Origin: Okamejei kenojei
Taxonomy: Eukaryota
Length of the DNA: 64,000 nt
Assembly (NCBI GenBank): GCA_035221665.1
Contig: CM069141.1
Span: 36,766,001-36,830,000, forward strand
Direction: 5' to 3'
Shown: positions 5,270 through 42,455 of the stretch, in pieces
Position numbering within the stretch: the stretch's first letter is position 1
How the letters are laid out: each line of letters begins with the position of its first letter
Notes under the pieces: model-generated
Told to the model about the DNA's origin: nothing
The model's database searches: none
The model's input: only the letters and a program-made list of their open reading frames with translations
Position numbers and translations under genes: made by a program

Positions 5270-6780
5270 TGTGGAGAGAGAGGGGGTGAGAGAGGAGGGA
5301 GAGAGGTGGGGAGGGGGAGGAAGAGGGGAAGAGTGGGGAGTGAGGTGGAGAGGGGTAGCAGGAAGTGGTGCAAGAGAGAGGGAAAGGGGGTGGGGGGGAG
5401 ATGGGGGTGAAGAGGGGTGGGGGAGAGGGGGTGGGAGGGGAGTGGGGTGAGGAGAGAGGGAGATGAAGAGGGGGGAAGGGGGAGGAGGAGAGGCGGGTGG
5501 GGAGGGTGTGAGAGGGTTCAGGGGAGGGGTGAGAGGGAGGGAGGGGTGAGGACGAGGGAGGGAGGAGGGGAAGTGGATGGAGGGGAAGAGTGGAGGGTGG
5601 GGGAGAGGGGTAGGGGAGAGAGAGGGAAGAGTGTGGAGGGAGGGAGAGAGTGGTAGGGGGAGGGGAAGAGTGGGGGAGGGAGGGGGAGAGCAGAGAGAGG
5701 GGGGAGGGGAGGGAAAGGGAGGGAGGAGAGAGGGGGTGGTGGAGGAGAGATGGGGAGAGGTGAGGGATGGGAAGAGAAGTGTAAGTGGGGAGGGAGGGGG
5801 AGAGATGTAGGGGGGAGTGTGGGAGAGGGGGAGGGGGAGGGGGGTTGTGCTGGAAGAGGGTGAGTGGGGTGGAGAGGGGTAGGGGATGGTGGGAGGGGAG
5901 GGGGAGAGAGAGGGTGAGGGGTGGGAGGGAGAGAGAGAGGTTGGGAGAGAGGTGGGGTGGGAGAGGTGGAAGAGTGGGGAGGGAGGGGAGAGGGGTAGGG
6001 GAGTGGTGGAAAGTGGGGAGAGTTGATGGAGGGGAGAGGGCGTAGGGGGAGTGGTGGAAGAGGGAGAGGGGGGGGGGTAGCGAAAAAAAAGGGGTGGGGG
6101 AGAGAGGGGAGGGAGGGAGAGAGAGGGGTGGGGGGAGGAGAGGGGTGGGGGAGGGAAGGGGTAGAGAAGAGAAGAGTGGGGAGGGAGAGGGAGAGGTGTA
6201 GGGGAGTGGTGGAAGAGGGGACAGAGGGTAGGGGGAGTGGTGGAGGACAGAGGGGTAGGGGGAAAGGGGGCGGGGGAGAGAGGGAGAGAGAGAAGGGGGC
6301 GGGGGGTTAGAGGGCAGGGCAGTGGGGGAGAGAGGGATGGGGTGGGGGGAGGAGGGAGGGGAGGAGGAGGGGAGGAGAGGGAGAGGGGGTGAGGAGAGGG
6401 AGATGGAGGGGGAGGAGAGGGGGTGGGGGAGGAGAGAGGTGTGGGGGAGGGGGAGGGAGAGATTGGGTAGGGGAGAAAGGGGGAAGAGTGGGGAGGGGGA
6501 GGGGAAGGTGGAGAGAGGGAAGGGGGGTGGGGAGAGGGAAGGGGGAGTGGGGAGATGGGGGTGGGAGGAGGAGGAGGAGAATGGAGAGGGGAGGAGTGGG
6601 GAGGAGAGAGGGATGGGGAAGGGGGAGAGAGGTGGGTGGGGGTGGGATGGGGAGGGAGGGGAGGAGGGAGATGGGATAGGGGAGGGAGGGGGAAGAGTGT
6701 GGGAGGGAGAGGGAGAGGGGTGGGGGAGAGAGGGGAAAGAGTGGGGAGGTAGAGTGGGATGGCGAGAGGGAGGGGTAGGG
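5270..6780. repeat. About 1.5-kb polypurine (G/A-rich) low-complexity tract
   Basis: Almost exclusively G/A with GGG runs; the Pro/Gly-rich ORFs here are compositional by-products. Confidence 0.95.
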
Positions 6781-7276
6781 GCAGTCCATCTATTTCCCAC
6801 TCCCTATCACCCCCAATCCTCTTTCTCTGTTCCCACACACGTGATCATGAGCATCGACACAGGCTGCGGGGGGGGGGGGGGGGGGGGGGGGGAGCTGGGG
6901 CTGGAACAAAGGCAGATGTAAATGAGATCCATTCCGATTGGACATCTGTGAACATTGGGCATTGTGACATCACATGATGGAACGTTCACCAACATTTTGT
7001 GGGTGAGAGCAGTTTGATTTTTTTAACATTTTGAAATATTGGGGGGGGGGGGGGCGTGAAGGATTTTATTAAAAATGTGTACGTAAAAATGTCTAAATGT
7101 AATGAGGAGTGCATTAGTGAATGTAAAAGTGTAATGTCTAGCAAAATGGAAAAAATGGCGGCGTTTGAGCATCTGGTTTCGGCGGACCATGGAATCAAAG
7201 GCCAAAAGTCTTATCTGAAAAAAAAATGGAATGTGACATTATTCACAAGACACACACACGGAGTTTTAAAAGTATA
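5270..7276 (-). mobile_element. Non-autonomous Helitron-like unit A (3' end lost; long GA/CT-rich internal tract)
   Basis: Minus-strand start TATACTTTTAAAACTCCGTGTGTG resembles the 5' ends at 36302 and 40685; 7040-7200 is homologous to 7800-7950. Confidence 0.55.
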
Positions 7277-7995
7277 CTAGGCCAGAGTGCCAGTCCCCGA
7301 ACGTGCTTCAGTACGCGAGTACGGGGGGAGGAGGGGAGGGAGGGGCAGAGGGAAGGGGGGGGGGAGGGAGGGGGGGAGGAGGGGGGGGGGAGGAGGAGGG
7401 GGGTAGGGAGGGGGGGATTGTTAGCGAACTGAACTTACTGTGGAATTAATCCATTAACGGAGCGACTCTCCTGGTGGATTGGAAGTTGTCCCTGCCTTCC
7501 CTCTGGCTGAAGGCAAAAATCGGCTGTTCCCCCGCTGTATTTCGGAGCACGGCGAAAAGCAGCGGTGGAAGAAGCGAGCTTTGTCTTGAGCAAGCGTGAT
7601 AGAGCCGAGCCAAAGCCTGGGGGGGGGGGGGGGAGGGGGGGGGGGGGGGGCGGGGGGAGGAAGTGAAATGGGGAGCCGAATCAGCAGGGGAATCGGCCGT
7701 GGGGAAACAAAAGGCGGCGTTTTTGGAGGAGAGCGGGCTGCAGCAGCTGCCGTTATGGTGCCTGCCCAGCAAGAGGCCTCAAAATGACTGAGTGTGTGGG
7801 GGGGGGGGGGGGGGGGAAGTGAAGGATTTTATTTTAAAAAAGTGTACATAAAAATGTCTAAATGTAATGAGGAGTGAATCCGTGAATGTAAAAGTGGAAT
7901 ATGTCTCGGGGTCTGAAAGTGTGGTTTTGGCGAACCATGGAATCAAATGGGGAAAATTCAGTGGCACCCACAATGCCAGCACACACACACACACT
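7277..7995 (-). mobile_element. Non-autonomous Helitron-like unit B, joined head-to-tail to unit A
   Basis: Minus-strand 3' end ...GGCACTCTGGCCTAG abuts the unit A 5' end; shares the subterminal block and (CA)n with unit A. Confidence 0.55.
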
Positions 7996-10900
7996 GCGGG
8001 ACAAATTTCAGCGCTGGAGTAAAATAAAAATCCACTTCTAATGCCGTCAATGCCGACAACGGGACGGATCTCCCGTACGGGACAAATAAAGGTAAGCCGT
8101 TTATTTTACATATAAACTTGCTTCTTAGGATTACCTTAATCCAAATGTTACTCCCGTTGCGAAAAGGTGATTTAGGCCCCATACGAACCGGCAGTGTTTT
8201 TCCTGACGATATGGGGTTTAAATTCACCGCACACCGCAAAGTTCCAATCCATCGCGTTCCACAAATCCCACTCGCAAGATGATTTAATTAGAAACATAGA
8301 AGCATAGAAATTAGGTGCAGGAGCAGGCCATTCGGCCCATCGAGCCTGCACCGCCATTCAATATGATCATGGCTGATCATCCAACTCAGTATCCTGTACC
8401 TGCTTTCTCTCCATACCCCCTGATCCCTTCAGCCACAAGGGCCACATCTAACTCCCTCTTAAATATGGCCAACGAACTGGCCTCAATTACCTTCTGTGGC
8501 AGAGAATTCCACAGATTCACCACTCTCTGTGTGAAAAACGATTTTCTCATTTGGCTCCTAAAAGACTTTCCCTTATCCTTAAACAGTGACCCCTTGTCCT
8601 GGACTTCCCCAACATCGGGAACAATCTTCCTGCATCTAGCCTGTCCAACCCTTTAAGAATTGTGTAAGTCTCTATGAGATCACCCCTCAATCTTCTAAAT
8701 TCCAGCGAGTACAAGCCAAGTCTATCCAGTCTTTCTTCATATGGAAGTCGTGCCATCCAGGAATCAGTCTGTGAACCTTCTCTGTACTCCCTCTATGGCA
8801 AGAATGTGCCCTCACCAAGACCCTGTACAACTGCAATAGAACCTCCCTGCTCTTGTACTCATCCTTTTGCTATGAATGCCAACATACCATTCGCTTTCTT
8901 CACAGCCTGCTGCACCTGCATGCTACTTTCAATGACTGGTGTACCATGACACCATGGTCTCGCTGCATCTCCCCGTTTTCCTAACCGGTCACCATTCAAA
9001 TAATATTGTGTACCTTCCTGTTTTTGCCACCAAAGTGAATAACCTCACATTATCCACATTATACTGCATCTGCCATGCATTTGCCCACTCACCCAGTCTA
9101 TCCAAGTCATCCTGCAGCCTCCTAGCATCCTCCTCACAGCTAACACTGCCTCCCAGCTTCGTGTCATCCGCAAACTTCGAGATGTTGCATTTAATTCCCT
9201 CGTCCAAATCATTAATGTAAATTGTAAATAGCTGGGGTCCCAGCACTGAGCCTTGCGGCACCCCACTAGTCACTGTCTGCCATCCTGAAAAGGACCCGTT
9301 CACTCCTACTCTTTGCTTCCTGTCTGCCAGCCAGTTCTCTATCCACATCAATACTGAACCACCAATACCGTGTGCTTTAAGTTTGTATACCAATCTCTTG
9401 TGTGGGACCTTGTCCAGATACAACACATCCACTGCTGCCGATGTTAGACTAACTGGTCTGTAATTCCCCGTTTTCTCTCTCCCTCCCTTTTTAAAAAGTG
9501 GGGTTACATTAGCTACCCTCCAATCCTCAGGAACTACTCCAGAATCTAAAGAGTTTTGAAAAATTATCACTAAGGCATTTGCTATTTCTGGGGCTACTTC
9601 CTTAAGTATCCTGGGACGCAGCCTATCTGGCCCTGGGGATTTATCGGCCTTTAATCCATTCAATTTACCCAACACCACTTTCCGGCTAACCTGGATTTCA
9701 CTCATTTCCTCCATCTCATTTAACCCGCAATCCCCTGCTATTTCCGGCAAATTATTTATGTCTTCCTTAGTGAAGACAGAACCAAAGTAGTTATTCAATT
9801 GGTCTGCCATGTCCTTGTTCCCATGATCAATTCACCCGATTCTGCCTGCAAGGGACCTACATTTGTTTTAACTAATCTTTTGCGCTTCACATATTGATAA
9901 AAACTTTTGCAGTCAGTTTTTATGATTCCTGCCAGTTTTCTTTCATACTCCATTTTCCCTTTTCTAATTAAGCCCTTTGTCCTCCTCTGTTGGTCTCTGA
10001 ATTTATCCCAGTCCCCGGTAGGCTGCTTTTTCTGGCTAATTTGTACGCTTCCATCTTTTTCTTTGATACTATCCCTGATTTCCCTCATTATCCACGGATA
10101 CGCCACCTTCCCTGATTTATTCTTTTGCCATACTGGGATGAACAATTGTTGTAGTTCATCCATGCAGTCTTTAAATGCCTTCCATTGCATATCCACCGTC
10201 AACCCTTCAAGAATCAATTGCCAGTCCATCTTGGCCAATTCATGTCTCATACCCTCAAAGTTACCTTTCTTTAAGTTCAGGACACGTGTTTCTGAATTAA
10301 CAATGTCACTCTCCATCCTAATGAAGAACTCAACCATATTATGGTCAACATCTTGCCCAAGGGGCCACGTACAACAAGGCTGCTAACTAACCCTTCCTCA
10401 TTACTCAATATCCAGTCTAGAATAGCCTGCTCCTCTCGTTGGGTTCCTCCACATGATGGTTTAGAAAACTATCCCCGCATACATTCCAAGAAATCCTCTT
10501 CCTCAGCACCCTGCCAATTTGATTCACCCAAAATCTATATGTAGATTGAAGTCACCCATTATAACGGTTTTACCTTCGTTGCACGCATTTCTAATTTTCC
10601 TGTTTGATGCCATCCCCAACTCCACTACTACTGTTAGGTGGCTGTACACAACACCCACTAGCGTTTTCTGCCCTTGGTGTTTCGCAGCTCCAACCCATAT
10701 CGATTCCACATCCTCCAACGCTAATGGTCATTCCTTTCTATTGCATTAATCTCCTCTCTAACCAGCAACGCTACCCCCACCTCCTTTTCCTCTCTGTCTT
10801 ATCCTTCCTGAATATTGAATATCCCTGGATGTTCAGCTCCCAGCCTTGGTCACCCTGGAGCCATGTCTCCGTTATCCCAACTATATCATAATTATTAATA

Positions 10901-11670
10901 GCTATCTGCACATTCAACTCATCCACCTTATTACGAATGCTCCTCGCATTGAGACACAAAGCATTTCAGGCTTGTTTTTACAACACTCTTGGCCCTTTTA
11001 CAATTATGTTGAAAAGTGGCCCTTTTAGATTTTTGCCCTGGATTTGTTTTCCTGCCACTTTTCACCTCGCTACCTATTGCTCCTATCCTCATTTTACACC
11101 CATCTGTCTCTCCGCTCACTAATTGGCCATTAATTTACAGGAATTAAACACTAAATTCCTTCCATTTGGCCTATAAATTCATGACATTGAGATTTAAAAA
11201 TCATGTTATATTGTGAATTCTTGTGTGAATGTTATTTGGACACTTAGGCAATTTAAAAATGTTAATCTTTACTTAAGAAATGGATAGATGTTTAGATCTA
11301 GTAATTGAATTTTGTAATTAGCTACAATCAGGTAACTAACTAATTATATGCTTTAATTTCAGGTCATCCAAGTAAGATTGCTTCATATTTGCTTCAGAAT
11401 GCTTCAAACTATATTTCAGTTCTCTTAATTTTTAAGAAAGTTATCAGCTTTTGACTGTCCTTGATCACAGCTTTTGTGTTAAGTCAATGGAAAAGCAATA
11501 GGGAACAAGATGCTAATTCCCAAGTATGAAAATGGCCCCATACCTTTTTAAATACTTTTTAAAAGATATGAAAGTGAATTAGGTGTCAAATTAAACTTCT
11601 TTTTATGCTTTATCTGATGGGATAAATTGCAGACTTGATTTTTTAAATATCAACAGTTTGTAACATTGCT
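7996..11670. mobile_element. Unclassified DNA-transposon-like repeat split by a CR1 insertion
   Basis: Segments 7996-8289 and 11120-11670 join across the duplicated TAATT; abrupt end ...TTTGTAACATTGCT. Family not assigned. Confidence 0.45.
8290..11119 (-). mobile_element. CR1 LINE ORF2 (APE endonuclease + RT), 5'-truncated, internally deleted
   Basis: CLNARSIRNK..VGITETWL, MGDFN, RT motifs [15 protein letters not shown]; (TTTCTATG)-type tail at 8290; candidate TSD TAATT at 8285-8289 and 11120-11124. Confidence 0.95.
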
Positions 11671-11698
11671 AGTATATGATGATATGATGACATTGCTG

Positions 11699-11921
11699 TG
11701 CCCCAAACATTATGGTGCCCTGAAGTGGGGGTACTATGTATAAACACTGCTGTAATTTCTACATGGTGAAACCAAAATGTCTAAAAATGGCCTTTATTAA
11801 AATCTGATAATGTGCACTTTAACCACAAGTGATTTTTTTTTCTATTACAAATCTCAAATTGTTGAGTATAGAGGCAAATAAATGATGGGTCTTTGTCCCA
11901 AACATTATGGAGGGCACTTGT
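11699..11921 (+). mobile_element. Tc1/mariner-like terminal IR/DR remnant
   Basis: Direct repeat CCCAAACATTATGG at both ends of about 220 bp, ending GAGGGCAC(T)TGTA, typical of a Tc1 IR/DR end next to TA. Confidence 0.65.
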
Positions 11922-12169
11922 AAGGGATCTTCGATCATGAGAGAAACTGCGCCTTGAAACTGAGTCAGGAAAAAGGAGGCATGAGCCAGGAAAAATGAGG
12001 CATGGGCCAGGTATGATCAGCTGGGATAAAGTGTATCCCAGGCCTGGAAGAGTTAAAGGGATTGAGGAGCCTACTAAAAAAGAAAAGCAAGAGAGCAAAA
12101 TGAGGGCAAGAGACAGCTCTGGGAGTTAAGATTAAAGATCATCCAAAATGTGTGCTTTTAGTTTGATGT

Positions 12170-12742
12170 AAAATTTATGCTTTAGCTTATCTTTAGTTTT
12201 TGTATTTGTGGGGGGTGGTGGAAACTTTTTTTAAATCTCTTTCCCCGACGGAGATGCGACCTTTTCCGTGTCGTATCTCCATCTGCACTGCGGCCAAACA
12301 TCGTGCAGTTGGTGGCCTCGTTTGGGACTTCAAGAGCTACAAAACCGTGGAGCCTGCGGATTTTAACATCTCCGAGCAGGCGATCCCTTTGGCAGGGGTT
12401 GGCCTTTGGTGCTCCAGCCTGCGGGAGCTGCAGACTTTAACATTGTTAAGCTCGCGGTCCCTGGTTAGGGACCGATTTCAGTAACTTCAAGCCGCAGGAA
12501 TTTTCGACTGCCCCGATGCGGGAGCTTATACCGCCCCAACGTGGGAGCTCGATCACCGGCTGCAGATGGTTCGACTTTATTGCCTTCCATCACAGTGGGG
12601 AAGGTGGAGAGTCGCTGTGGTGGATGTTTTATAACAATTTTTTATGTAGTTGTGTGCCTTGTTTTTTTAGTATGACAGTGGCAAACTGAATTCCTCTCAT
12701 GTTGCAAAATACTTGCCTAATAAATTACAATTATGATTATGA
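12170..12742 (+). mobile_element. Unclassified non-LTR retroposon 3' portion
   Basis: CpG-rich body with internal short repeats, ending AATAAA then an (ATTATG)n tail. Confidence 0.5.
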
Positions 12743-12768
12743 AAATGATTTTACATATATTTGTAAAT

Positions 12769-13619
12769 TGTTCTAAGCTTCCCCCGTCTAGTTTCAGTCA
12801 AAAACCACTGAATCAAACACTTGCGCGACTAATCTTTATTTTGACAAAACACAATTACAATTCAATTACTATACCTAACCACTGCGGGTTCAATCCTCAT
12901 ATCTGTCTGATCAAGCCCTCTAGGCCTCGCTCAAACAGAGACACTCCAGAAGGTCACACAGTCCCAAGCGTTCTCCCAGAAGATCGACACAGGACCTGAT
13001 GGCAGCGGACCTTTATAGGTCCCCGGACCTCGAGGGGCCAAACCACATGGGGGTGGTCTCTTTACAATCCAATTACAGATATCGATTAACCCCATAATTA
13101 ACAGACATTTCCCTAATCCAATATTACATCGTATTCAAACAGTGTTTCTCAGAGGAAGCAAACAACGCAACACGTACCCTGATATGCAAGAAAACCAGAC
13201 AAGGCTCAATACCTCATCCAATCAACATTCAGTAAAGTAAAGCTTTGCAACATTATTTACAAAGTGTATGTCTGGTTTGCAGTCATCCAATCCATTCTAT
13301 GCATTGTGCATCTAATTGACTGGGTCTGCAGAAGTTCCCATTCCCCTCCTGCAGCTTGGATCTAGGCTCTAGACAAACTGGCACCACTGCAGCTTGTCCC
13401 AGTTCCACAGAGAGCACTTTCAAATTGACCAAATATCCCAGCAGCCCTGAAGCCTTTACCCAGTTTTAGAGTCCTAGTCTCTCCAATCTGGCCAGGATTG
13501 ACATATTCACGAAGAAAGTGGAACTGAGAGACAATAGGGCACCTCAGAAACCAAGTCATTTATGTCTCGAGCTGCTGGAGATGGGCTAGGTCTTCAATTA
13601 ACATTCCTCCTCCGTTTTT
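12769..13619 (-). mobile_element. ERV/LTR-retrotransposon LTR with adjacent polypurine tract
   Basis: Minus strand: PPT AAAAACGGAGGAGGAA (13619-13604) directly before TG at 13603; TATAAA at about 13017; AATAAA at 12840-12835; ends ...AGAACA at 12769. Confidence 0.65.
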
Positions 13620-14129
13620 ATTACAGAAAAAGACAAGAATGCTAGGAAACTTGGGAAAGTCAATGGATATGTCTTTAGGACAGTTATATTACCGTTGAGA
13701 AGGTGCTGGATGTCTTAAGATATATGAGGGTAGATAAATCTCCTGGGCCTGATCAGATATTTCAAAGGACATTTAGGGAAGCTAGAGAAGAAATTGCAGG
13801 AGTCCTTCAATATATAGGCAAGAGGGAACTAACATGGACAAAAGGTGGCATGTTCAACATATACTAACTTTATTGCTGAACAAAAATACAATGTGATAGT
13901 TAAAGCATTACATAATAACTTAATAATTCAAAGCTATTTGTGATCTTACTATACCACCCACATAACTATGAAATATTATCAACCATTATTATCTGGTGCA
14001 GCATTTCGTCATTACTTTAATCTTAAGGTTTCCTTTTTCCAAGGACTTCAAATTTAATTCTTCATCCTTCTCTTCTGGCCACAGCTAACAGGGGATTTGT
14101 AAGTTACACCAACAGTGATAAAAACTGCT

Positions 14130-15111
14130 CATGATAAAGATGTTTAATGGGAATGGAAGCATTGAAGAGGAGCAGAACAGATGCAAAGGGATGACAGGAT
14201 ATGAGAAGAAAAATTGTGGCAGAGAAAAGCAAACATTGAAATGTGAAATTATCAATTTTGGGGAGAAAATAATAAAGCTGATTCAATTTTTCAAAAGTGA
14301 GAGAAAATATTGACAGCTCTATTCTGATACATAAGTTATAAGTATACACAAGATGTCAATAGGTATTGCAAGTGATAGTGAAGGTAAATGATATTTTAGT
14401 ACAAAGGGCTTGGAATATTTGAACGAGATATCTTCATGCAGAATAAGGCCGTGATACCTGGGACATTGTACTGTTGTGTCTCCATACTGATGGAGAAAAG
14501 TTGCTTTAGTGTAAGCACAACAGTCACCCTATTCAGATTTCTGGCATGGAGGGATTGTTCCATGAGGAAAGCTCGAGTACAGCAAGTCTACATTCCGTGG
14601 AGTTTAGAAGAACAGTACAGATTTATTGAGACATAATATTGCGAAAGGGCTTGACAGAGGAAATTTCCATTGGCTATGGAGTACAGGTTTGTTGTTGTTT
14701 TCGAACCTCCCCTTCACATTCAAAATGCATACATAGGGATCAGCAATAACACTGAGAGAACAGATGTGTGGGAAAGGGTTAAATGGCAATGTAAAGACCG
14801 TAATAAGATTGATTAGTGTACTTCCATGAAATACTTCCAGAATCACGCAAAACCAAGTATTAAAACAGAATGCATCACATGTGCTCAATTTTTAATTTTT
14901 TGCTGCATTCTCGGGCATTATTAATTTAATGAAAGGAAAGAATTAGCATATTGCATGATATATTTTTCATTAAGGACAATATTGCACACAATGAATGGAA
15001 ATCCAAGAGAAATTACGCTCAAATAATTTGCTGAGAATTCAGATCATTTCAAAAGCTAGTTTTACACAGAACAGAAAGAAGACATTGGTATATTGTGCCT
15101 TCCTTTACGAT

Positions 15112-15176
<65 letters not shown>

Positions 15177-24624: not shown

Positions 24625-24823
24625 TCAGGATGTACCTGAAGCTGGAGAGGATAGCTCCTGTTTTTCAGGTTCCTGTGGTGGATTTGGTACAGCTTCCTCA
24701 TTCATTTCTGTGGCCATAAATTCATGAACTGCCTTCTCTATCTGCGGTTTGAATATGTGATACAGCTTCGGATCCACGACTTGAGAAATAATTCTGTCCA
24801 CGCCAGATTCCAACATTCCTGAT
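24625..24823 (-). CDS. BOD1: BOD1 coding exon 3 with stop (147-aa product)
   Basis: Acceptor ccatctcccag|; encodes (K)SGMLESGVDRIISQVVDPKLYHIFKPQIEKAVHEFMATEMNEEAVPNPPQEPEKQELSSPASGTS*. The short Pro-rich tail ending in TS* matches BOD1 rather than the very long BOD1L1. Confidence 0.92.
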
Positions 24824-26355
24824 CTGGGAGATGGAAACATAATAATTTAGCATATTTATCAAATAAACTTCTTTCATTATTTTTTCATTTGCAATGGGGA
24901 TAATATTTCCATGCCTCAAATGACAATGCCCAACATTTCTACTTCACTCAAAATACAGAACCGAGACCAATGTTAGTAGAACTTCGTGTAACTGTGAATA
25001 GTTTGACAAAAATGAACTCACAGTAAAAGCGTATTAGAAACTAAAAGCAATCACCTGTCTAACTATTGAGCAGATGTTTACTACTGGGGATCCACTGGAC
25101 CAAAAGCAGTTACATAAAATAGAAATTAATGTAATAAAGTGAATTTTGTGAATAAAGTTTTCAATTTTTGCAGAGAGGTTTAAGATACGAGTTTGTAAAT
25201 TGAATTGTTCAGTTTAAATTTATACTGAAACCAGATGAAAAAGAAACAGTTTCCCTTTCACCATGAAAGGGGAGAAAAATTGATGTCAAAAGTACGTGGA
25301 ATGTGAAATATTTCCACACAACCATTTAACCTGTTAACCAGACAAAGTTAACTGAAGGCATAAAATTCTATAGAAAAAAAACATACATTTAATTCAGTAA
25401 AAAAATCATTTTTGTTAAAGGTCTAATAGTTTTCACGTATCGATGTTCTCCACTCCTTTCGTCAAGTTGACTTTTCTTCAGGTAATTAGCAAGCTCAAAA
25501 ACACGTAGAGGCAGCATAACAGTTTAAGTAGCAACAGGAAAATAAAGTGGGGAAATTAAAATAATAAAATGCCAGTGTGATGTTTGATATTGGAGAAAAT
25601 AAAAAATCCAATGTTACAAAAAACAAAAAAAGAAAATGCTGGAGGAACAAGATGCATTTCGGATGAAGAACTCCATATTTGATCAGTTCTTCGTGCTTAA
25701 GATTACTTTTGAATGGGCAAGAAATTAAATGTGTATTGTAAAAAAAACAATAATTTGCATGTTGATATTGAAAATTAAATTTGAATTTAGCAAATTTTCA
25801 CCAATCTATTTTTCCCATTACCCCAGAAAATGGTTTATTGCTATTTAACCACAGATACGATAGGAAAATTGGTCTGACAACAGTCACAACACACAAGGTA
25901 CACAAAAAACTTGAAATTAAAAGTGAAAACAAAAAGAAAAAGACAAGCAACTGCTGGCTGGCTGCCGTGTGCACTGCGCCTTCACCAGAACAAATGAGCA
26001 AACAGACATTTCCCTGGGCAGAGGATTCTAAATTAGTGCCCCCACCCCCCCTCCTCCACACCGGGTCCCCCTTTGTTCTCCCACTGTCCCTCACAGCGGT
26101 CTCCCCACGGCAAGTCCTCCATAGTTCTTTGCGGCAGTTCCCCCACGCCGGGTCCTCCATTGTTCTTCTCCCCCGTGAAGAACAATGGTGGCCTTCTTGG
26201 TATCTTTGATTACACACAATAGTAAGTTTGCTAATGAGCTGAAGTAAAACCATAACTAGTAATATAAGTCATATTTTATGAGCTCAGATTGCAAGATTGG
26301 TCAAAACGTTTTACTCAAAAAGAAATTAACTATGGAGTTTAATTAATGTACTCAC

Positions 26356-27405: not shown

Positions 27406-27414
27406 CTCAGAATA

Positions 27415-28944: not shown

Positions 28945-29352
28945 CCTATTGTAATGCGTATTGCGTGCGTTCGCATGATCTAGATCAGCGGGTTTGGAGA
29001 CATGACAGAAGGAACCCAGAGCAACTCGGGGGGCGGGGGGGGGGGGGGGAGACAGGGAATAGGAAACGAGCGGTGCTACAAGGTCTGATGGCAGCAGGCG
29101 GACCGAACACCAGAGGCGGGTGTAGGGTAGTCAGGGCGCAGAGAGCGCTGGTGTAGTTACCGGGCCGCGGTACGTGTAGTTACCGGGCCGCTGCGGGTCC
29201 GTCGGCGGCCTGAGGCCCGCGTTGTTTCCGACGGTTCAAGGCCCGGTGCAGAGGCAGAGGCCCGTTAACCATCGCTGCCCCGGGTGCGGCCAGGCCGAGC
29301 GGCCCGATGGGGAACACCGCGGGCCCGGGCGGGGCGTGCGGTCACCCCTCAC

Positions 29353-29472
29353 CTTCGTGTCGACATCGGCGAGGCAGTCTCTGCGGAACTCGTCGAACAG
29401 ACCGCGGTTCTTCAGATGATCCACGATCTTGGCGATGACGTTGGGGTCTTCTGGCGGCAGGTTTTTGGCCAT
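29353..29472 (-). CDS. BOD1: BOD1 (biorientation of chromosomes in cell division 1; COMPASS Shg1-like domain), coding exon 1
   Basis: Strong Kozak GCCATGG; encodes MAKNLPPEDPNVIAKIVDHLKNRGLFDEFRRDCLADVDTK, containing the BOD1-family signature GLFDxFRRDCLADVDTK; ends AAG|GTGAGG (phase 0); lies in a CpG-rich island. Confidence 0.95.
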
Positions 29473-29678
29473 GGCTGGGCTGGGCTGGGCTGGGGAGGGG
29501 GCGGATGGAAACCCCAGCTTTAATGACAATGGCGACGGTGGGTGGGGGGGGGACCGAGTGTGAACTCTGCGCCGACTCGCCAGCCGTCCGTCAATTACAA
29601 CTACTTCCGCCGGAAACACGCGGTGCCGTCTGGGAGGTGTAGTTTAATTCGGCTGACGTACGTTCGCCGCCTTGAGAT

Positions 29679-29703
29679 ACTACAATACCCAGATGGCACC
29701 GCG
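29679..29703 (+). promoter_or_regulatory. ZNF143/Staf (SBS)-THAP11-type motif
   Basis: ACTACAATACCCAGATGGCACCGCG closely resembles the ACTACAnnTCCCAnnATGC consensus of vertebrate housekeeping promoters. Confidence 0.75.
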
Positions 29704-29764
29704 TCCCACAGCGCCTGCGCTCAGGTTGGAAACCAGAGGGACCATTTAATTCCATCTCACACCA

Positions 29765-30712: not shown

Positions 30713-30864
30713 TGTAATAATGTTGTTTAGTTCTAAAGCAACTTTTTTCTACATCCGAAAATAAGGATATACCGACCTAGTCTGTTGACATTCTTTCTTC
30801 CATTGTCTAAAATTAGCAAAGGCGCTCAATAATGTAATTTAATAAAGGCAAATGTTTGGAAGAG

Positions 30865-32208: not shown

Positions 32209-32308
32209 GTAGACAAAAATGCTGGAGAAACTCAGCGGGTGAGGCAGCATCTATGGAGCGAAGGAAATAGGCAACTTTTCAGGTCGAAACCCTTCTTCAG
32301 ACCAAAGT
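32209..32308 (-). mobile_element. Short Penelope-derived insertion with 15-bp TSD
   Basis: TCTTGGTGAACTTTG at 32194-32208 and 32309-32323. Confidence 0.75.
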
Positions 32309-33045
32309 TCTTGGTGAACTTTGTCCTCATTTTAGTTAGGCTTCTGACAGCTATTTAACTGCACTGCACGCATGAATGTTCCAGCTAATATCAGCTGACC
32401 TCTCACATTCTGGGAAGTTCCAAATCTGTTTGAACCACACCACATCACGTGGTGCAATTGTACATTAAACTATTATTGTCACTTAGTGGACAGGGCAATG
32501 AAAACACAAATGTTATTTGTGTAATTTAACTAGCTTATTCAAGAGACATTAAGGGGATGCTGAAAGAAAAACAAAACATAACAAAATACTGATGTACTTT
32601 TACACAATGAATGAAGTAAATATTGAATGTAAAGTAGCAGATATGCCAGTAAGTACATGAGGAACAATGGAGATAAAAATACCAAGAGCAACCGACAGCT
32701 TGTGTTCAGCGAAAATCTTATATAGTGATACGATACGTAAGGGAAATTGGTCTGTAAGCAAATTAGCAAGTATTTATTAGCTGAATTATTGGTGGTCTAT
32801 ACAGCAATATCCACGCAACCATTAGCTGAGAGATAAGAAAGTCAATTATTCACTGTTGATTATAACTGTTTTATTATGTAATCTATTATTGAGTGGATTC
32901 CTAGAAGAGGAAGTCCTATGCAGGAACAATATGTGATGCCAGGCATACTAATAGGACACTTGCAAATTGCAACAGAATCACTCAAATGTTCAATGTGTCT
33001 GCCAGTGGATTAGTTAATACCAGGAGTTTCTAAAATTGCACACTT

Positions 33046-33205
33046 AGTTTTTATAGATACAGAATGGAAGCAGGCCCTTCGGCTTACCGAGTCTGTGCTT
33101 ACCATCGATCACCCAGACACTAGTTCTATGTTATCCCACTTTTTCATCTTACACATTAGGGGCAATTTACAGAAGCCATTCAGCCTACAAATCTGCCATC
33201 TTTGA
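33046..33205 (-). mobile_element. HE1-like SINE 3' fragment
   Basis: GGCCCTTCGGC..CCGAGTC..TTATCCCACT..GGGCAATTTAC matches the SINE 3' half. Confidence 0.7.
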
Positions 33206-33249
33206 AATCCTTAGCTTTCTTAACATTTTGGGATCTTGGCATTGCTGCC

Positions 33250-33495
33250 GTTAGTGGCAACCATGGTGCGGGGTGGAGAAGGGGGAGTGTCTGGTGTGAG
33301 ACTCATCCTTGATGGGCGAACTGCAATGAGTCAAGTTTGTTTGGTAGCCCAAATCTAATGCATTCCATAATTCAAAACACTTCATGATGGTGGATGTCAA
33401 GACCACTGGATGGTAGTCATTAAGGCATGAGATTTTGCTTTTCTTTGACACCGGGATGATACTTGTCTTCTTGAAGTTGGTGGAGTACTTCAAAA
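33250..33495 (-). mobile_element. Rex1/Babar RT fragment
   Basis: [35 protein letters not shown]. Confidence 0.8.
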
Positions 33496-33573
33496 CTGAG
33501 TAGGAAGAGAATAAAGATGTACATTAACCACAATACATTTCTTGGAAATTAATAACTTTTGCCACTTCCAATT

Positions 33574-35577
33574 AGAAACATAGAAACATAGAAAATAGGT
33601 GCAGGAGTAGGCCATTCAGCCCTTCTAGCCTGCACCGCCATTCAATATGATCATGGCTGATCATTATACTCAGTATTGTGTACCTGCCTTCTCTCCATAC
33701 TCCCTGATCCCTTTAGCCACAAGGGCCACATCTAACTCCTTCTTAAATATAGCCAATGAACTGGCCTCAACTACCTTCTGTGGCAGAGAATTCCAGAGAC
33801 TCAACACTCCCTGTGTGAAAAATGTTTTCCTCATCTTGGTCTTAAAGGAATTCCCCCTTATCCTTAAACTGTGACCCCTTGTTCTGGACCTTCCCAACAT
33901 CGGGAACAATCTTCCTACATCTAGCGTGTCCAACCCCTTAAGAATTTTGTAAGTTTCTATAAGATCCCCCCTCAATCTTCTAAATTCTAGCGAGTACAAG
34001 CCGAGTCTATCCAGTCTTTCCTCATATGAAAGCCCTGACATCCCACAAATCAGTCTGGCGAACCTTCTCTGTACACCCTCTATGGCAAGAATGTCTTTCC
34101 TCAGATTTGGAGACCAAAACTGTACGCAATACTCTTCTTCTTCTTCTTTCGTGTGGCGTGCACAGCCTAAAGTTGTTGGACAACTTGTTCTTTTTGATCT
34201 TCCGTTTGTGCATGTCGAGTTGATTGCATTAGTCGAAACAGGGCAGACCACATGAAGGTTGCAATCTTCAACCCCTACGCAATACTCCAGGTGTGGTCTC
34301 ACCAGAACCTTGTACAACTGCAGTAGAACCTCCCTGCTCCTATACTCAAATCCTTTTGCTATGAATGCTAACATACCATTCGCTTTCTTCACTGCCTGCT
34401 GCACCTGCATACCTACTTTCAATGACTGGTGTACCATGACACCCAGGTCTCGTTGTATCTCCCCTTTTCCTAATCAGCCACCATTCAGATAATAGTCTAC
34501 CCTCCTGTTTTTGCCACCAAAGTGGATAACCTCACATTTATCCACATTATACTGCATCTGCCATGCATTTGCCCACTCACCCAGCCTATCCAAGTCACCT
34601 AGCATCCACCTCACACCTAACACTGCCAGCTTCGTGTCATCCACAAACTTGGAGATGTTGCATTCAATTCCCTCGACCAAATCAGTAATATACATTGTAA
34701 ATAGCTGGGGTCCCAGCACTGAGCCTTGCAGTGCCACACTAGTCACTGCCTGCCGATCTGAAAAGGACCCGTTTACTCCTACCCTTTGCTTCCTGTCTGC
34801 CAGCCAGTTCTCAATCCACATCAATACTGAACCCCAAATACCGTGTGCTTTAAGTTTGTATACTAATCTCTTATGTGGGACCTTGTCGAAAGCCTTCTGA
34901 AAGTCCAGATATAACACATCCACTGGTTCTCCCTTAGTCACTCTACTAGTTACATCCTCGAAAAAGTCTATAAAATTCGTCAGACATGATTTACCTTTTG
35001 TAAATCCATGCTGACTTTGTCCAATGATTTCACCACTTTCCAAATGTGCTGCTATCCCATCTTTAATAACTGACTCTAGCAGTTTCCCCACTACCAATGT
35101 TAGACGAACTGGTCTGTAATTCCCCATTTTCTCTCTCCCTCCTTTTTTAAAAAGTGGGGTTACATTAGCTACCCTCCAATCCTCAGGAACTACTCCAGCA
35201 TCTAAAGAGTTTTGAAAAATTATCACTAATGCATCCACTATTTCTGTGGCTACTTCCTTGAGTATTCTGGGATGCAGCCTATCTGGCCCTGTCGATTTAT
35301 CGGCCTTTAATCCATTCAATTTACCCAACACCACTTCCCGGCTAACCTGGATTTCACTCAGTTCCTCCATCTTATTTGATTTTTTATGTCTTTCTTAGTA
35401 AAGACAGAACCAAAGTAGTTATTCAATTGGTCTGCCATGTCCTTGTTCCCCAAGATCAATTCACCTGTTTCTGATTGCAAGGGACCTACATTTGGTTTAA
35501 CTAATCTTTTTCTCTTCACATATCTATAAAAACTTTTGCAGTCAGTTTTTATGTTCCCTGCCAGTTTTCTTTCATAA
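33574..35577 (-). mobile_element. CR1 LINE, 5'-truncated (same family as 1922, 8290, 53095)
   Basis: RT ORF 34474-35370 and C-terminal ORF 33670-34437; (TTTCTATG)n tail. Confidence 0.95.
34135..34275 (-). mobile_element. 141-bp (GAA)n-tailed retroposon nested in the CR1, 12-bp TSD
   Basis: TACGCAATACTC at 34123-34134 and 34276-34287; a second truncated copy lies at about 38835-38899. Confidence 0.85.
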
Positions 35578-36408
35578 TTAAAATAAATGAGTTAAATGTG
35601 TTCCAAATTGTTATGAATCCAAGTCAAATCTGCATTTCTTTCCTACACATTTCCCTACTCCTACCTTGCCGATCATAGCTTTTGAGATGTTTTTGTATTC
35701 TTTCCATTCCTGACATTGAAGTCACATAGTAGGATCAGTTCATCTCCCTCAGGGTCACAGGCAAGGATTGTTTCAAGATCAAAATAGAAATCTAGATTGG
35801 CTGCACCAATAACTTCCATGATTGAATTACATCTGCTGATGACTGTAGCTTATTGACTCATGAAATACTCATCTACACCCCAGGGCAAGTTGCTGAAGAT
35901 AGTATTCCCTTTCCAGCTTGCCTTCAAGAAGAAGTTAACCAATTTCCATGATTTGTGCTATCGCCATTTCTATCTCATTATATCTCACACAGAATGGCAA
36001 CATTAATGTCAGAGCATCTGTGTTCTGGGGAAATGGCAGCAGAATAATGTTCAGGGCTGTCACTGCTGGGATTGCCTATGGGGACCTTGACAGTTCAGGA
36101 GCAAAACTCTTGATTTAATGTGATGGTCATTAAACACTTCCTACCAAACAGGGTTGACAGAGTAAGGTTTTACATCTGTAGCCAGGAGTTCAAGACAGTT
36201 GGAAGCGAGATTCTGCTGTATGGAAGTCAAACACAAATGTAGATGCTTATCATGCAAGTGCACACACCACACACTAACATGCGCACTGACAGTTGCATAC
36301 ATCTCTATTACTAAAAGTCTGATCTTGACTGCTTTTGGATCACTGTGGTGTAATTTCCAAGAGAACGCCGCCACCTAAGGCCGTCATTTTTGGTCAGCTC
36401 GCTCAGAG

Positions 36409-36445
<37 letters not shown>

Positions 36446-36689
36446 CCTTCCTGCACTAGAGGATTTTTCCCATCAATAAAAAATCAGAGAGATATTAATT
36501 TATTTTTTTAATCGCCATTCGCTCTGCTGCCCCTGCTGGAGGGAGGGTGAGGGACTATAAAACCAGGACATTGTGTGCCTCACTCAGTCTCTGCAAGATG
36601 GAGAAAGCCAGAGGGTCACGTCTCTCTGAGCTCTGAATAGCACTGAATACATGTCTACTCAACTGTGAGTGCCCTTAATGTGGTTCGAT

Positions 36690-37048
36690 AAATGCTTGCA
36701 AAAAGTGTCTATTGGTTCTAAAATGCTTTCAAAAAGTGTCTATTGGTTCTAAAATGCTTGCAAAAAGTGTCTATTGGTTCTAAAATGCTTGGAAAAAGTG
36801 TCTATTGGTTCTAAAATGCTTGCAGAAAGTGTCTGTTGGTTCTAACATGCTTGCAAAAAGTGTCTCTATTGGTTCTAAAATGCTTGCAAAAAGTGTCTCT
36901 ATTGGTTCTAAAATGCTTGCAAAAAGTGTCTCTATTGGTTCTAAAATGCTTGCAAAGAGTGTCTCTATTGGTTCTAAAATGTTTGCAAAAAGTGTCTGTA
37001 TTTGTTCTAAAATGCTTGCAAAAAGTGTCTCAATTAGTTCTAAAATGC
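36690..37048 (+). repeat. 31-33 bp minisatellite, about 11 copies
   Basis: Unit AAATGCTTGCAAAAAGTGTCT(CT)ATTGGTTCTA. Confidence 0.95.
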
Positions 37049-37141
37049 TGCCTGGCCAGAGTGACTGAGCTGCCTGGCCAGAGTGACTGAGCTGCCTGGC
37101 CAGAGTGACTGAGCTGCCTGGTCTGAGTGACTGAGCTGCCA
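37047..37141 (+). repeat. 22-bp tandem repeat, about 4 copies
   Basis: Unit CTGCCTGGCCAGAGTGACTGAG. Confidence 0.9.
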
Positions 37142-38894
37142 GCCTAAGAATCCATTCGGCCCACAATGTCCATACTAGCCCTGTGGAAACCAGTCCCTTT
37201 GACCCACACACACATACTAGCACTCCAGAAAGTCTCCCTCCCCCTCCCTACTGGCCAGCAATATTGGAATTGGTGGAGAGGTGGAATATTGCATTGGGGG
37301 ACCAGCCGTCCCATGTGAAGCTGTGACCTAATGGGTCCCACTTAGTCTAGTTCCATTATAAGCTTCTCATCCTATCTCCCTTATCCAACTCCTGTTGTTC
37401 TCTCCATCCTTAATCCTCTTCACCTCCCATCCTCAGTGTCTCCACCATCTTCTTCACATCATCTTTTGAATAGATAACAATAGCCCTGTAGGGATCACAA
37501 AAGTTGTAAGCTGCCTAAGAAGAAGCCAATGGAAGAGCACACTGTCTTTAGATAATCCTGATTCATTCTTGGTTCATTTCACAATGCTGCCTGCAGCAAG
37601 ACAAGACATTGTGGTTAATGTCCTTTTCACCTGCTGCAATGTCTTACCCTGATTGGTATTCTCCTCAAATAGCAATGTGAAGCTTCTTGCCAACAGAAAA
37701 TAGCTGGAGTGTGGCAGCACAAAGCAGAGAGTGTTTGCTGTCAGACAGATAGTAAGTGAGGTTCAGCTATAGCACAGACAGGCTTATGTGTGTGGGAGAG
37801 GAGAGCCATGGCTCAGCCAGAATTAATACAGGCACTCACAAAAGTACAGACACATGGTACAATCTTGGACTGGAAGAGAACTATCAAATATTACCAGGAA
37901 GAGACTAGCTGTGGCACAGCATGGAATGAAACAGACAGAGCTGAACCCAAGTACGCAGCACAATCTGGATCTGAGGGAGAACTTAACTCTCATAAATATG
38001 AGGACTGAGAATCGGCAACGTCTTCTGAAGGTGAGAGAGAAAAAGAGGGACAGGGGGAGAAAGGAAGTGAGAGAAAGAGGAGGAGGAGGAGGAGGAGGAG
38101 GAGGAGGAGGAGGAGGAGGAAGAGGGACAGAGGGTAAGCGGAGAGCGCCTACATGAGCTCTCTGAAGGATGAAGCCTAGGAAAGCCTAGGTATTCCTTGA
38201 GATACTCCAAGATGGTGCCAGAGCATGGCGACATTCCCTGCTGGTCCCAGAGGAGGACCAACCATCATCCAATATAATCGGTTTACTCTCAAATCTCTTT
38301 TCTCCCTGTAAATCCAGCACCATTCACAATGCTGAGAACTATATTCTGCACTCTTATCTTATTTGCTCTATCTATTGTATTTGAGGTTGACTTGATTGTT
38401 TTTTTATGCATAGTATTGTCTGATTTAGTTGGACAGAACACAGAATAAAGTTTTCATTGTACCTCAGTACATGTGACAATAATAAACCTAAACCGAATCA
38501 CCTTGCTTAAAAAAAGAAACTTTCATTTGCATCAATGGAATTAGTAAAACATTGCCATTGGGTTAATATATTCCAAAGCAGAATGAAATAGATTTCTGAA
38601 ATTGTCATAGCTCTTGTACCTATATAGTTTAATAATGTTAATGCACCTCAAAGTAATTTATTGAATATTTAACAAATATTGTTCCTTTTCCTTTATGTGT
38701 AGGATGCCAGAATAATTGTTAGCAGTCATAACAAAATTAAACAATTGAATAATACCATGTGCTCCAATTTTCCACACTAATCTCTTGTGTGGGACCATGT
38801 CAAAAGCTTTTTGAAAGTCCAGATACACCACATCCTCTCTTCTTCTTGCGTATGACATGTATAGCCTAAAGTTGTAGGACAACTTGTTATATTT

Positions 38895-39494
38895 GATCCC
38901 TGTCACATGGGAGGCCTGGTCCTCCAACGCAACCCGTTCCTCAATGCAATATTCCACCACTCACCCATAGCCCCCACGGGAGGCCAGGTCCCCCAATGCA
39001 ACCCGTTCCCCAATGCAATATTACACCACTCACCCATAGCCCCCACGGGAGGCCTGGTCCTCCAACGCAACCCATTCCCCACCACAATATTCCACCACTC
39101 ACCCATAGCCGACAACTGTGCTGGGGCTGCTCATTCCGCCTTATTCATCGTCCCTCATTTTTAAACTTGAAATAAAATACAATTGTACTTGCTGGCTAGA
39201 AGAACTCAGTGTTCTGTGACTTAAAAAAAAACATTTGAGTCACCTAGCAGGACTCAGTGTACTTGGATAGCAACAAAGTTGCGAGCAGGGCTACAATCCC
39301 ATTGTGACATCACAGCTGTAAGCACAGGAAATAAGCAGTTATTTTTTCCAAGTTTTTGAACATTTTGATTAATAACAAGAAATAATGCATGAAATTTTGA
39401 GACGGCGGTTTGGACTCCACAGGATATATATCTATCGGAATATGTAAAACTTTTACCGTTAGCACGTTTTTTCGAGAAGATGAGAACACACACA

Positions 39495-39525
<31 letters not shown>

Positions 39526-40685
39526 AACAGTTCCCCAACGCAATTCCCCAACGCAATATTCCACCACTCAACTGTTTCCCCCAACACAACCCATTCCCCC
39601 AAAGCAATATTCCACCACTCACCCATAGCCTCTAACTGCGCAGGCGTGACTCATTTCCCTCATCCCCCAGCACTCCCCCCCCCTTCCTCTTCATGTGTGG
39701 GAGGGGAGGAGGGGTGTGGGGGTGTGTGTGTGCAGGGGGGTGGAGGTAGGGCAGAGAGCATGGTGTGGGGGGAGAAGGGGGCGGGGGTGTGTGGGGAGGG
39801 GGTGTGCAGGAGGGGTGTGTGGGGGAGGGGGCTGTGGGGAATGGGGTGTGGGAGAGGGGGGATGTGGGAGAGGATGGAGGGGGTGTTGGGGAGGGGGGTG
39901 GTGGATGGGGGTGGAGGGGGGTGGGGGGTGGAGGAGGGGGGTGTGTGGGAGGGCGGTTGTGGAGGACAGAGGGTGTTTTGTGGGGGAGGGGGCATGGGGA
40001 AGGGGGTGGAGAGTGTGGGGGAAGGGGGGAAGAGGGGTGTGGGGAAGGGCGGATTGTGGGGAGGGGGGTGTGGGGAAGGGGGGGTGGGGTTGGGGGAAGG
40101 GAGTGTGGAGGGGGGTTTCTGGAAGGGGAGTTTGGGGAAGGGGACATGATGGGGGGGATGGGGGAGGGGGATGTGGGAAGGGGGGGTTGCAGCAGATGCA
40201 GCTCACCTTCTGCTCAGCCCGCACCTTCAGCTATCGGCCTCACGCCTCACGCAGCAGCTCCCGGTCCCACTCCAACTTCACTCAGAGGCTTCCGGTTCAA
40301 CTTAACAGCGCCTGGCTCGTCGTGCTCGTCGCCACAGAAGCAGCCCGCACGCTGCTCTCTGCCCGCATGGCTTGTGGACTCAATCAGTGGGGCTCGTGGA
40401 CTCAGCCCCGTCTCTGGGGTTTTATTCTCCTCACTCCGGTGATTGATAGTGGGTGCTCGAAGTTGCGTTACCTTCATGGTGATTGACAGGCGAGAAGACC
40501 AATCTGCTAATCTCACTTTCGTAATATTCCACCGATCTGAACAAAACGTGGTGCGCTTGGAGCAGAGGACAACGATGTGTAAGGTGGCCAAAAAATCCTA
40601 GCGATATAGGGTACCGGTTTTGTGTAAATTTAAAAACAGCGCAAACCAGAAGAGGACACGATGAAAGTTTTAGTAATAGTATAGA
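38895..40685 (-). mobile_element. Composite Helitron-like element (two tandem units, 3' tip missing)
   Basis: Minus-strand 5' end TCTATACTATTACTAAAAC at 40685 beside a (GATA)n run; subterminal CCCCAACGCAATATTCCACCACTCACCCATA motif at 38909-39110 (69 bp x3) and 39530-39630, shared with the ends at 37250-37300 and 42370-42430. Confidence 0.65.
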
Positions 40686-40869
40686 TAGATAGAAGATAGA
40701 TAGGTAGATAGGTAGATAGATAGGGATAAGATGAATTAATGCAGAATGGAGATGATAGGAAATGGGTCATTGTTATAGTTCATGTGAATTTTCAGAAAGT
40801 ATATTTTAATGTGGCTTTCACTGGAATGTTAAAATTCATGGCCAAAAGGCTTCTTATTATTAAAAATGG

Positions 40870-41273
40870 ACAAATTGCTGGAGTAACTCTGCAGGATAGG
40901 CAGCATCTCTAGAGAAAATGGATAAATGATGTTTTGACTGAGAGTGAAAAAGAGGTTGGGGGGGGGGGGGTTGGGAGAAGGAGGAGACAGATTACCTCAA
41001 GCAGGGTGGTTGCCTGATAAGCCAACTTTTGTCTAGAGACAGTGTGATCATAAAAGGGATACATAGTTAAAAACTATGGAACTGGTTAACTGACTTTTAG
41101 TGGTGGAAGGGGGTAATAGAAGTTACCAAAACTAGAAAACCATACCCCTGGGTTGCAAGCTGCCGAAGTGAAATATGAGGTCCTAATTTGCATGTGGCCT
41201 CATCCTGTCAATGGAGGAAGCCCAGGACAGAAAGGTTAGTCCCATGATTACATTGCAACTTCTCCTGCATCTC
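40870..41273 (-). mobile_element. Penelope 3' fragment next to the gap
   Basis: GCTGGAGTAACTCTGCAGG terminal motif; LSVLGFLH..LIFHFGSLQPRG remnant. Confidence 0.7.
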
Positions 41274-41455
41274 NNNNNNNNNNNNNNNNNNNNNNNNNNN
41301 NNNNNNNNNNNNNNNNNNNNNNNNNNNNNNNNNNNNNNNNNNNNNNNNNNNNNNNNNNNNNNNNNNNNNNNNNNNNNNNNNNNNNNNNNNNNNNNNNNNN
41401 NNNNNNNNNNNNNNNNNNNNNNNNNNNNNNNNNNNNNNNNNNNNNNNNNNNNNNN
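41274..41455. other. Assembly gap (182 N)
   Basis: Run of n characters. Confidence 1.
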
Positions 41456-42181
41456 TATTTTCTTCCAAATGCTAGGCCACAGCTTCCCATTTTCACACAT
41501 TCTACTCACATTTTTCCCGTCGAGGCAATAAATATCTTCCCGTCACATTCCCACCTATATTTCCAAACTTTGAAAATCGTTTAAAGATTAAAAAACAGCC
41601 CTGAAAACTCACCCATTTCGGAAAAATAACCCTGAGTTGACGTCGCAAGGCAGGACGGGACACCCCGGGAAGGAAGGGCACTCCAGTGCTCGTGTGGCGG
41701 TGGCTGCCGGCGACCATCGCCTGACAGGGAGGGTGGTGCTGGAACAGGAGTGAGGGCTGAGCCCGGGGCTTGGGATGGGGCCATGACCGAGGCCGAGAAA
41801 GAAGCCGCCGCTGGTACCAAGGACGGGCCTGGGTCCGTGGTCAGGGAGGAGCCTGGAGATGAAGTCATAGCCTGCACTATAGCCCAGGCGGCGGCCAAGC
41901 TGATGACTGGAGTCTACAGCCAGGGCCAGGCCAAGTACGAGAACCAGGCCGAGTTCCGGGCCCTGGAGCTGCTCTACAACCTGGGTAGGTCCTGGGGCAG
42001 GGAATGGGTGTGAGGGGAGGTGGATGAGGGAAATGAGGAGTGAGATGGGGTGGGGAGTGGGGTGGTGGTGGGAGATGGCCCCTTCCTATCTATCCTAACT
42101 CCAACCCTCTCTTCCCCCTTCCCTCTCTACACCCCTCCCTCTCTACACCCCTCCCTCCCTCTCTCCCTTCCCTCCCCTCTA

Positions 42182-42233
<52 letters not shown>

Positions 42234-42455
42234 TGTCTGTCTCCTTCCCTCTCACCCTCTCCCTCTCTACCAGCCCTCCAAGTGATTGAAGAGAGAGGGT
42301 GAAGAGGAGGGTGTGCTGGGCGATGAGGAGAAATGAGCCGCGCCTGCACAGTTGGGGCTATGCGCGAGTGATGCAATATTGCGTTGGGGGAACGGATTGC
42401 GTTGGGGTTATGGGTGAGTGGTGGAATCTTGGGTTGGGGTCTACACTTGGTCTAG
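41456..42455 (+). mobile_element. Helitron-like element (5' end in the gap) carrying an exon-like cargo
   Basis: Ends GCAATATTGCGTTGGGGG..GGGTGAGTGGTGGAAT..CACTTGGTCTAG|T, homologous to the 3' end at 37350. Confidence 0.7.
41899..41984 (+). pseudogene. Captured SAC3D1-like (SAC3/GANP family) exon fragment
   Basis: LMTGVYSQGQAKYENQAEFRALELLYNL-G followed by donor G|GTAGGT; resembles the vertebrate SAC3D1 segment Y..G.yPnQ.eFqaL.LLYNLG; high GC3 codon bias. Confidence 0.55.

Follow-up and report, generated by a model that had tools for sequence, protein, structure and literature searches.

The window considered here is a 64,000-nucleotide stretch of Okamejei kenojei DNA (GenBank assembly GCA_035221665.1, contig CM069141.1, positions 36,766,001 to 36,830,000) in which, on reading both strands, we found six Helitron-like units, called Y, X, W, Z, V and T in the following, with a combined length of about 6.6 kb. 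This count agrees with the 'about six' of a first-pass annotation made from the sequence. Quite probably, these units are non-autonomous canonical Helitrons (HLE1) of several families with mixed end modules, one of which has likely captured a piece of the host gene SAC3D1. Unit relatives were compared within this one 64-kb window.

Termini and class of the units

One unit is complete: W (36302–37350, plus strand, 1049 bp). Y (minus strand, from 7276 to 5270) has no 3' end and V (minus strand, from 40685 to about 39526) has no CTAG end, while X (minus strand, from about 7993 to 7277) is devoid of its 5' terminus and Z (minus strand, from about 39525 to 38898) is clipped at both ends. The last unit, T, lies on the plus strand and emerges from a gap of 182 N (41274–41455), which hides its 5' end, to finish at 42455. 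The CTAG ends annotated at 7277 (minus strand), 37350 and 42455 (both plus strand) all stood up to inspection and none occurs in V, Y or Z. Each of the three is directly followed by T, as are 80 of the 298 CTAGs across the window. A TC start is found at two of the three visible 5' termini (36302 in W and 40685 in V), both preceded by A, the 5' terminus being out of view in X, Z and T. The three 3' ends also have in common a short CACT...CTAG motif that the rest of the window lacks, although this pattern was drawn from these very ends and the observation is partly circular. An imperfect hairpin stem precedes CTAG by 6 nt in W and by 14 nt in X, and T has none.

The CTAG at 7277 deserves a comment since X and Y abut there. 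It could be seen as part of the 5' end of Y, a reading in line with the 65% identity between V and Y, a level reached by 2 of 1996 random 30-mers; the imperfect hairpin upstream and the CACT...CTAG motif speak rather for a 3' end of X, and we find the former reading less convincing. The same letters (7277–7280) taken as a plus-strand 3' end were ruled out, as a G comes next and no hairpin precedes them.

The class of the elements can be examined most directly in W, the sole unit where a target-site duplication (TSD) is testable because both ends are present. Its best terminal inverted match is 5–6 nt and the longest duplication of its flanks 3 nt, hence W has neither terminal inverted repeats (TIRs) nor a TSD. 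Its insertion site is A|T and not T|T as in HLE2/Helentron elements, whose short terminal inverted repeats (about 12–17 nt) were not encountered in W either. No poly-A or repeat tail was found at the three CTAG ends. The annotation had remarked that no Rep/helicase gene was present, and indeed no Rep/helicase Pfam family was recovered at E<=0.01 among the 207 open reading frames (ORFs) of at least 62 amino acids located outside long interspersed nuclear elements (LINEs) and G/C tracts. Profiles built from the units, which match their training units by construction, retrieved no further copies in the window, and Rfam matches amount to zero. Taken together, the ends, the A|T flanks and the absence of TSD and TIR in W support the proposed assignment to Helitron-type non-autonomous elements, and the six units are likely HLE1.

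Mixed end modules

The 3' subterminal module termed type 1 is common to W, T, V and Z, with no shuffle out of 300 scoring as well in any of the six pairs; 122 of 155 alignment columns are identical between T and V, and the module also occurs as a 69-bp array of 2.9 copies at 38909–39110. The 3' end of X is devoid of this module (124, 16, 122 and 43 of 300 shuffles against W, T, V and Z, respectively), so that the related 3' motifs initially reported hold for four units and the array, and not for the end at 7277.

The 5' modules were compared in 15 pairs, using real-window segments and dinucleotide shuffles as nulls. Those of W and V are clearly related (type A; 0/1000 shuffles and 0/2500 under each of the two nulls), as are those of X and Y (type B; 124 of 165 columns identical, 0/400). 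Weaker yet supported links connect Y to T (0/2500 with real-window segments, 6/2500 with dinucleotide shuffles) and Y to Z (8/2500 and 2/2500). The two types do not align with each other (262/2500 for W–Y, 309/2500 for V–Y). Among the three 5' ends described as related, 36302 and 40685 are thus confirmed, while the resemblance of the Y end at 7276 to W is unconvincing (430/1000 shuffles) and to V marginal (36/1000). The resulting combinations are A+1 in W and V, B+1 in T and Z, B+2 in X, and B without 3' module in Y.

A Helitron family is defined by an identity of 80% across the final 30 bases in the portion of PMC4224331 used here. The last 30 bases are 64% identical between W and T, 55% between W and X and 63% between T and X, and the first 30 bases 70% between W and V. 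Since no pair of ends reaches 80%, the units of the window do not form one family. Judged on these alignments, they likely represent several related Helitron families in which 5' and 3' module types are mixed: the annotation was right in calling them modular and wrong in calling them one family.

A SAC3D1 fragment in unit T

Downstream of the gap, T (41456–42455, plus strand) consists of a type-B 5' module (41456–41635), the SAC3D1 fragment, low-complexity tracts and a type-1 3' module ending in CTAG|T. The fragment is an internally deleted coding piece (41714–41986, plus strand) recognized by its homology to XP_078252027.1, a SAC3 domain-containing protein 1-like from Rhinoraja longicauda. 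This was the single protein retrieved by phmmer at E<=0.001 (E 2.3e-4) among 1.84 billion representative proteins, and it matches the Pfam SAC3_GANP family at E 5e-69. The T interior itself gives a weak SAC3_GANP match (E 0.0078–0.055), under the curated cut-off. Positions 41903–41986 align to residues 257–284 of the protein with 20 of 28 identities, and positions 41714–41870 to its EPG-repeat region with a weaker, low-complexity match (pairwise E 2e-4). For the approximately 130 residues between these two matches and for all that follows residue 286, the window offers no convincing match, and residues 287–444 give none at E<0.4 anywhere in it. The homology runs in the sense orientation of the element and stops at G|GT (41985), a phase-1 donor-like site. 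On a side note, the SAC3D1-like proteins of Rhinoraja longicauda carry near their N-terminus an EPG-rich tandem repeat of variable length; they are encoded on two contigs of 6.6 kb and 32.8 Mb.

The 180 bp of T following the gap align to Y starting about 145 nt inside it, and a stretch of that length would fit in the 182-N gap. For this reason, the SAC3D1 fragment is probably located inside an element of about 1.1 kb. The SAC3D1 exon piece was likely captured at the DNA level, as far as can be told from its sequence, and is most likely a neutral, decayed passenger.

Organization and interiors of the other units

W (36302–37350, plus strand) starts with A|TC and a type-A 5' module, continues with a TATA/ATG-like interior and minisatellites (33 bp × 11.5 and 22 bp × 4.3, 36681–37140) and terminates with a type-1 3' module and CTAG|T. 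A donor-like site is found at 36665 and a degenerate hairpin at 37322–37340. V (39526–40685, minus strand), whose A|TC start at 40685 sits after an (ATAG)n tract, combines a type-A 5' module, a GC-rich interior (40207–40480) ending at a donor-like GT (40206), a C-rich tract and a type-1 3' module, and its 3' side runs directly into Z. In Z (38898–39525, minus strand), the 5' part bears a weak relation to Y (type B) and precedes the 69-bp × 2.9 type-1 array; the unit breaks off against another repeat where the hairpin would begin. A second piece of a short (CTT)n-tailed element (38838–38898) adjoins this broken 3' end; the other piece (34135–34276) lies inside a CR1 copy and displays a 12-bp target duplication.

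X (7277–7993, minus strand) is composed of a type-B 5' module, a GC-rich interior, a C-rich tract and a type-2 3' end, with a segment bounded by AG...GT (7616–7439) and a degenerate hairpin that CTAG|T follows after 14 nt. A CpG-rich repeat (7991–8290, observed/expected (o/e) CpG 1.34, resuming after about 11119) appears to have taken the place of its 5' end. This repeat seems to be split by a minus-strand CR1-type LINE (8286–11123) with a possible 5-bp TAATT duplication at its flanks. Y (5270–7276, minus strand) begins directly after the CTAG of X with a type-B 5' module, extends into 1.5 kb of C-rich sequence (66% G on the plus strand) and adjoins a CR1 ORF1 fragment on its other side. Within their 5' regions, Y (6974–6960) and Z (39314–39300) contain on the minus strand an identical 15-mer with a short palindrome, which might be an internal signal that type-B elements have conserved. 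Except for this 15-mer, the unit interiors are unrelated to one another, as had been stated.

The annotation had also attributed GC-rich, CpG-island- or exon-like cargo to each unit. This is borne out in part: T contains SAC3D1, and the interiors of V and X are GC-rich (60%), with CpG o/e of 0.75 and 0.64, respectively. The interiors of W, Y and Z, with CpG o/e of 0.25–0.40 and GC of 43–50%, are not CpG-island-like, and host-gene homology is found in one unit out of six. No Pfam family was detected in the frames of V or X. The sequences of the Protein Data Bank yielded nothing for T or V and chance matches (E 1.3–1.6) for two of the three X frames, and the ESM Atlas no match above 0.80 for T. 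A word-index homologue search came back blank for the T cargo (45 candidates), the V interior (26) and the ORF of the 3' subterminal array (751); these blanks are weak because the same search missed SAC3D1, a known positive. Donor-like sites are present on the sense strand of the X, W and V interiors (3/6 sense versus 1/6 antisense), for chance rates of 0.07–0.49 per interior and of 0.07–0.31 for each of these three.

Alternative interpretations

The units might belong to another class altogether, namely TIR-bounded miniature inverted-repeat elements, HLE2/Helentron derivatives or retroposed elements. Nothing specific speaks for this beyond the five units that are deprived of one or both ends, and it is already contradicted for W by the lack of TIR and TSD and by the A|T site; with three CTAG ends devoid of poly-A or repeat tail, we consider it extremely improbable. 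A single family, its members alike at the ends and interchangeable in cargo, would be compatible with the partly circular CACT...CTAG motif of all three 3' ends, and old copies could have decayed below 80%, but the terminal identities of 55–70%, the failure of type A and B modules to align and the X end without type-1 module make it a poor candidate. Slightly better placed, though still unlikely, is the proposal that the SAC3D1 piece arrived by segmental duplication or as break-repair filler and that Helitron remnants are adjacent by chance in a repeat-dense stretch. The 5' terminus of T in the gap, its missing hairpin, the internal deletion of the fragment and the crowding of four units in 36.3–42.5 kb are all consistent with such a route; the piece is nevertheless enclosed by a type-B 5' module and a type-1 3' end, all three on one strand and in a span of about 1 kb comparable to W and V, and no other SAC3D1 sequence exists in the window. 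The strongest competitor, to which we would grant somewhat less than even chances, holds that most interiors are non-coding remnants of the autonomous Helitron itself together with expanded low-complexity tracts, T alone having a host piece. It is compatible with the Helitron identity of the units, yet it removes the claim of a cargo in each of them. It draws on the interiors of V, W, X, Y and Z being without homologue, on W, Y and Z not being CpG-rich and on the 15-mer common to Y and Z; moreover, the 5' module of V itself has a CpG o/e of 1.14, so that high CpG may mark young insertions only. Conversely, the blanks of the word-index search carry little weight for the reason given above, and X, W and V each possess a sense-strand donor-like site, albeit at the chance rates already mentioned.

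We retain the interpretation of the six units as HLE1 of several families with one captured host piece, knowing that a number of observations weigh against it. W alone (1/6) shows both ends, the other five units being truncated or clipped by the gap, and Y starts with TA instead of TC. None of the 3' hairpins folds better than its shuffles (z of −0.64 for W, −0.90 for X and +0.71 for T). The Y–T and Y–Z links are gappy alignments of AT-rich DNA chosen from 15 pairs, and X–T (248/2500 shuffles) and Z–T (151/2500) are not significant. The 5' terminus of T is out of sight, and no host homologue was found for the interiors of V, W, X, Y and Z (5/6 units). Lastly, the GT at 41985 is only presumed, after the human gene, to be a real SAC3D1 intron position.

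Proposed mechanism

To the ends, A|T flanks, absence of TSD and TIR in W, module relations and SAC3D1 homology observed here, known Helitron biology allows a mechanism to be added. A RepHel protein encoded elsewhere would nick the 5' end and copy the element by rolling-circle strand displacement, mobilizing the units in trans. Should a weak hairpin terminator be missed, replication may run on into the flanking DNA and stop only at a 3' end further along, in many cases one belonging to another Helitron. Such read-through would join the 5' end of one family to the 3' end of another and trap host DNA between them. Later deletions, LINE insertions and the growth of minisatellites or G/C tracts could then have produced truncated and uneven copies. 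The relevant passages of PMC4778049 describe the hairpin as terminator and A|T as target; capture by read-through accounts there for about 11.7% of events, a share that reaches at least 36% in the absence of the hairpin. End bypass and chimeric ends are likewise documented, as in the compound HelibatN539 (excerpts of PMC4778049 and PMC4224331).

Helitrons of cartilaginous fishes and other vertebrates

The elements themselves are not new to this group, although the first-pass annotation was not aware of their being well described in chondrichthyans. The HELIANO supplement, as far as its tables used here go (PMC11417382), contains, for Amblyraja radiata, the Rep and helicase domains of Helitron-1_AmRa and Helitron-2_AmRa and, for Callorhinchus, those of Helitron-1_CM. 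In its Tables S1 and S10, HLE1 are reported in four of eight chondrichthyan genomes: 11,154 in Leucoraja erinacea, 4,818 in Mobula birostris, 1,651 in Hypanus sabinus and 1 in white shark. By lineage, this corresponds to thousands in three of the four batoids and at most one in four sharks. The 11,154 calls over the 2,191 Mb of Leucoraja come to about 0.33 for every 64 kb, which agrees with the single complete unit observed here. Helitron-1/2_AmRa and the batoid HLE1 calls share element class and likely host lineage with the window units, and they are likened to them on these two grounds, since the supplement rows in question consist of names and counts and contain nothing on cargo. By analogy, they are obvious candidates for the mobilizing RepHel.

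In bats, gene capture affects 110 of 645 unique Helitrons, amounting to 12,382 copies, with a 5' bias (PMC4224331, in part). The bat Helibat elements, among them HelibatN3 with NUBPL and the compound HelibatN539, resemble the window units by their TC...CTAG ends, A|T target and heterogeneous interiors, and further by a captured piece of coding sequence with a splice donor after it and by chimeric ends derived from two elements (portions of PMC4224331 and PMC4778049). They differ in belonging to another vertebrate lineage, whereas the capture in the window is one copy, with no sign of amplification and with degenerate hairpins among the units. In Xenopus laevis, the passages of PMC12001565 on Heli1Xen1 describe 19 coding fragments, 17 of them from 5' gene ends, in 64 insertions. 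Heli1Xen1 is similarly a non-autonomous HLE1 with coding fragments; it is, however, a young and horizontally transferred single family, in contrast to the divergent units with mixed end types found here. Sharks, skates and cartilaginous fishes go unmentioned in those passages. In the sections at hand, the whale shark paper merely lists Helitron as present and the main text of the little skate paper never uses the word. The claim of novelty does hold for cargo, as no paper on Helitron cargo or gene capture in chondrichthyans was found in a search set apart from Repbase Reports, subscription papers and the supplements of genome papers and preprints.

Helitrons in batoids and the capture mechanism are therefore already known, and the novelty of the elements was overstated. 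The window contributes one case of a piece of host coding sequence, from SAC3D1, lying within a likely batoid Helitron, and it shows ends combined in different ways over 40 kb. Should such cases prove common, exon fragments and donor sites would be scattered in large numbers through batoid genomes, where they could mislead gene annotation and occasionally give rise to new transcripts; comparing rays with sharks would also make it possible to date and count Helitron capture in a vertebrate genome that evolves slowly. More tentatively, and with odds that we put on the lower side, rays and skates may have undergone a lineage-restricted Helitron expansion shuffling host exons with splice donors at a scale comparable to bats, with end-swapping between families as a routine capture route. 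Batoids would then constitute a further vertebrate lineage of mass exon shuffling by Helitrons, for which sharks would serve as a natural empty-site control.

Genomic setting

The window is made of repeat-rich vertebrate DNA with pieces of CR1-type LINEs encoding reverse transcriptase, endonuclease and GDSL-type ORF1 domains. Its minus strand carries a BOD1-like gene with coding exons at about 29472–29353, 26481–26360 and 24822–24637, matched by Pfam COMPASS-Shg1 at 29350–29472 and 24628–24846, a family which we take to correspond to BOD1 by name. The introns of this gene are free of the six Helitron units, which are located about 7–13 kb upstream or more than 16 kb downstream of it. Its CpG-island promoter displays an inverted repeat (29601–29704, self-match 29618–29704) with two inverted ACTAC-type motifs, which presumably resemble ZNF143/THAP11 sites.

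A 229-bp sequence is directly duplicated with 98.7% identity (57121–57349 and 58704–58932), as the result of either a templated insertion or an assembly artefact. The left copy breaks a repeat resembling a short interspersed nuclear element and is flanked by a duplication of about 25 bp (57097–57123 / 57345–57371). Finally, a near full-length CR1-type LINE (45464–49420, plus strand) has an open ORF1 of 311 amino acids with a GDSL/SGNH domain and a frameshifted ORF2.

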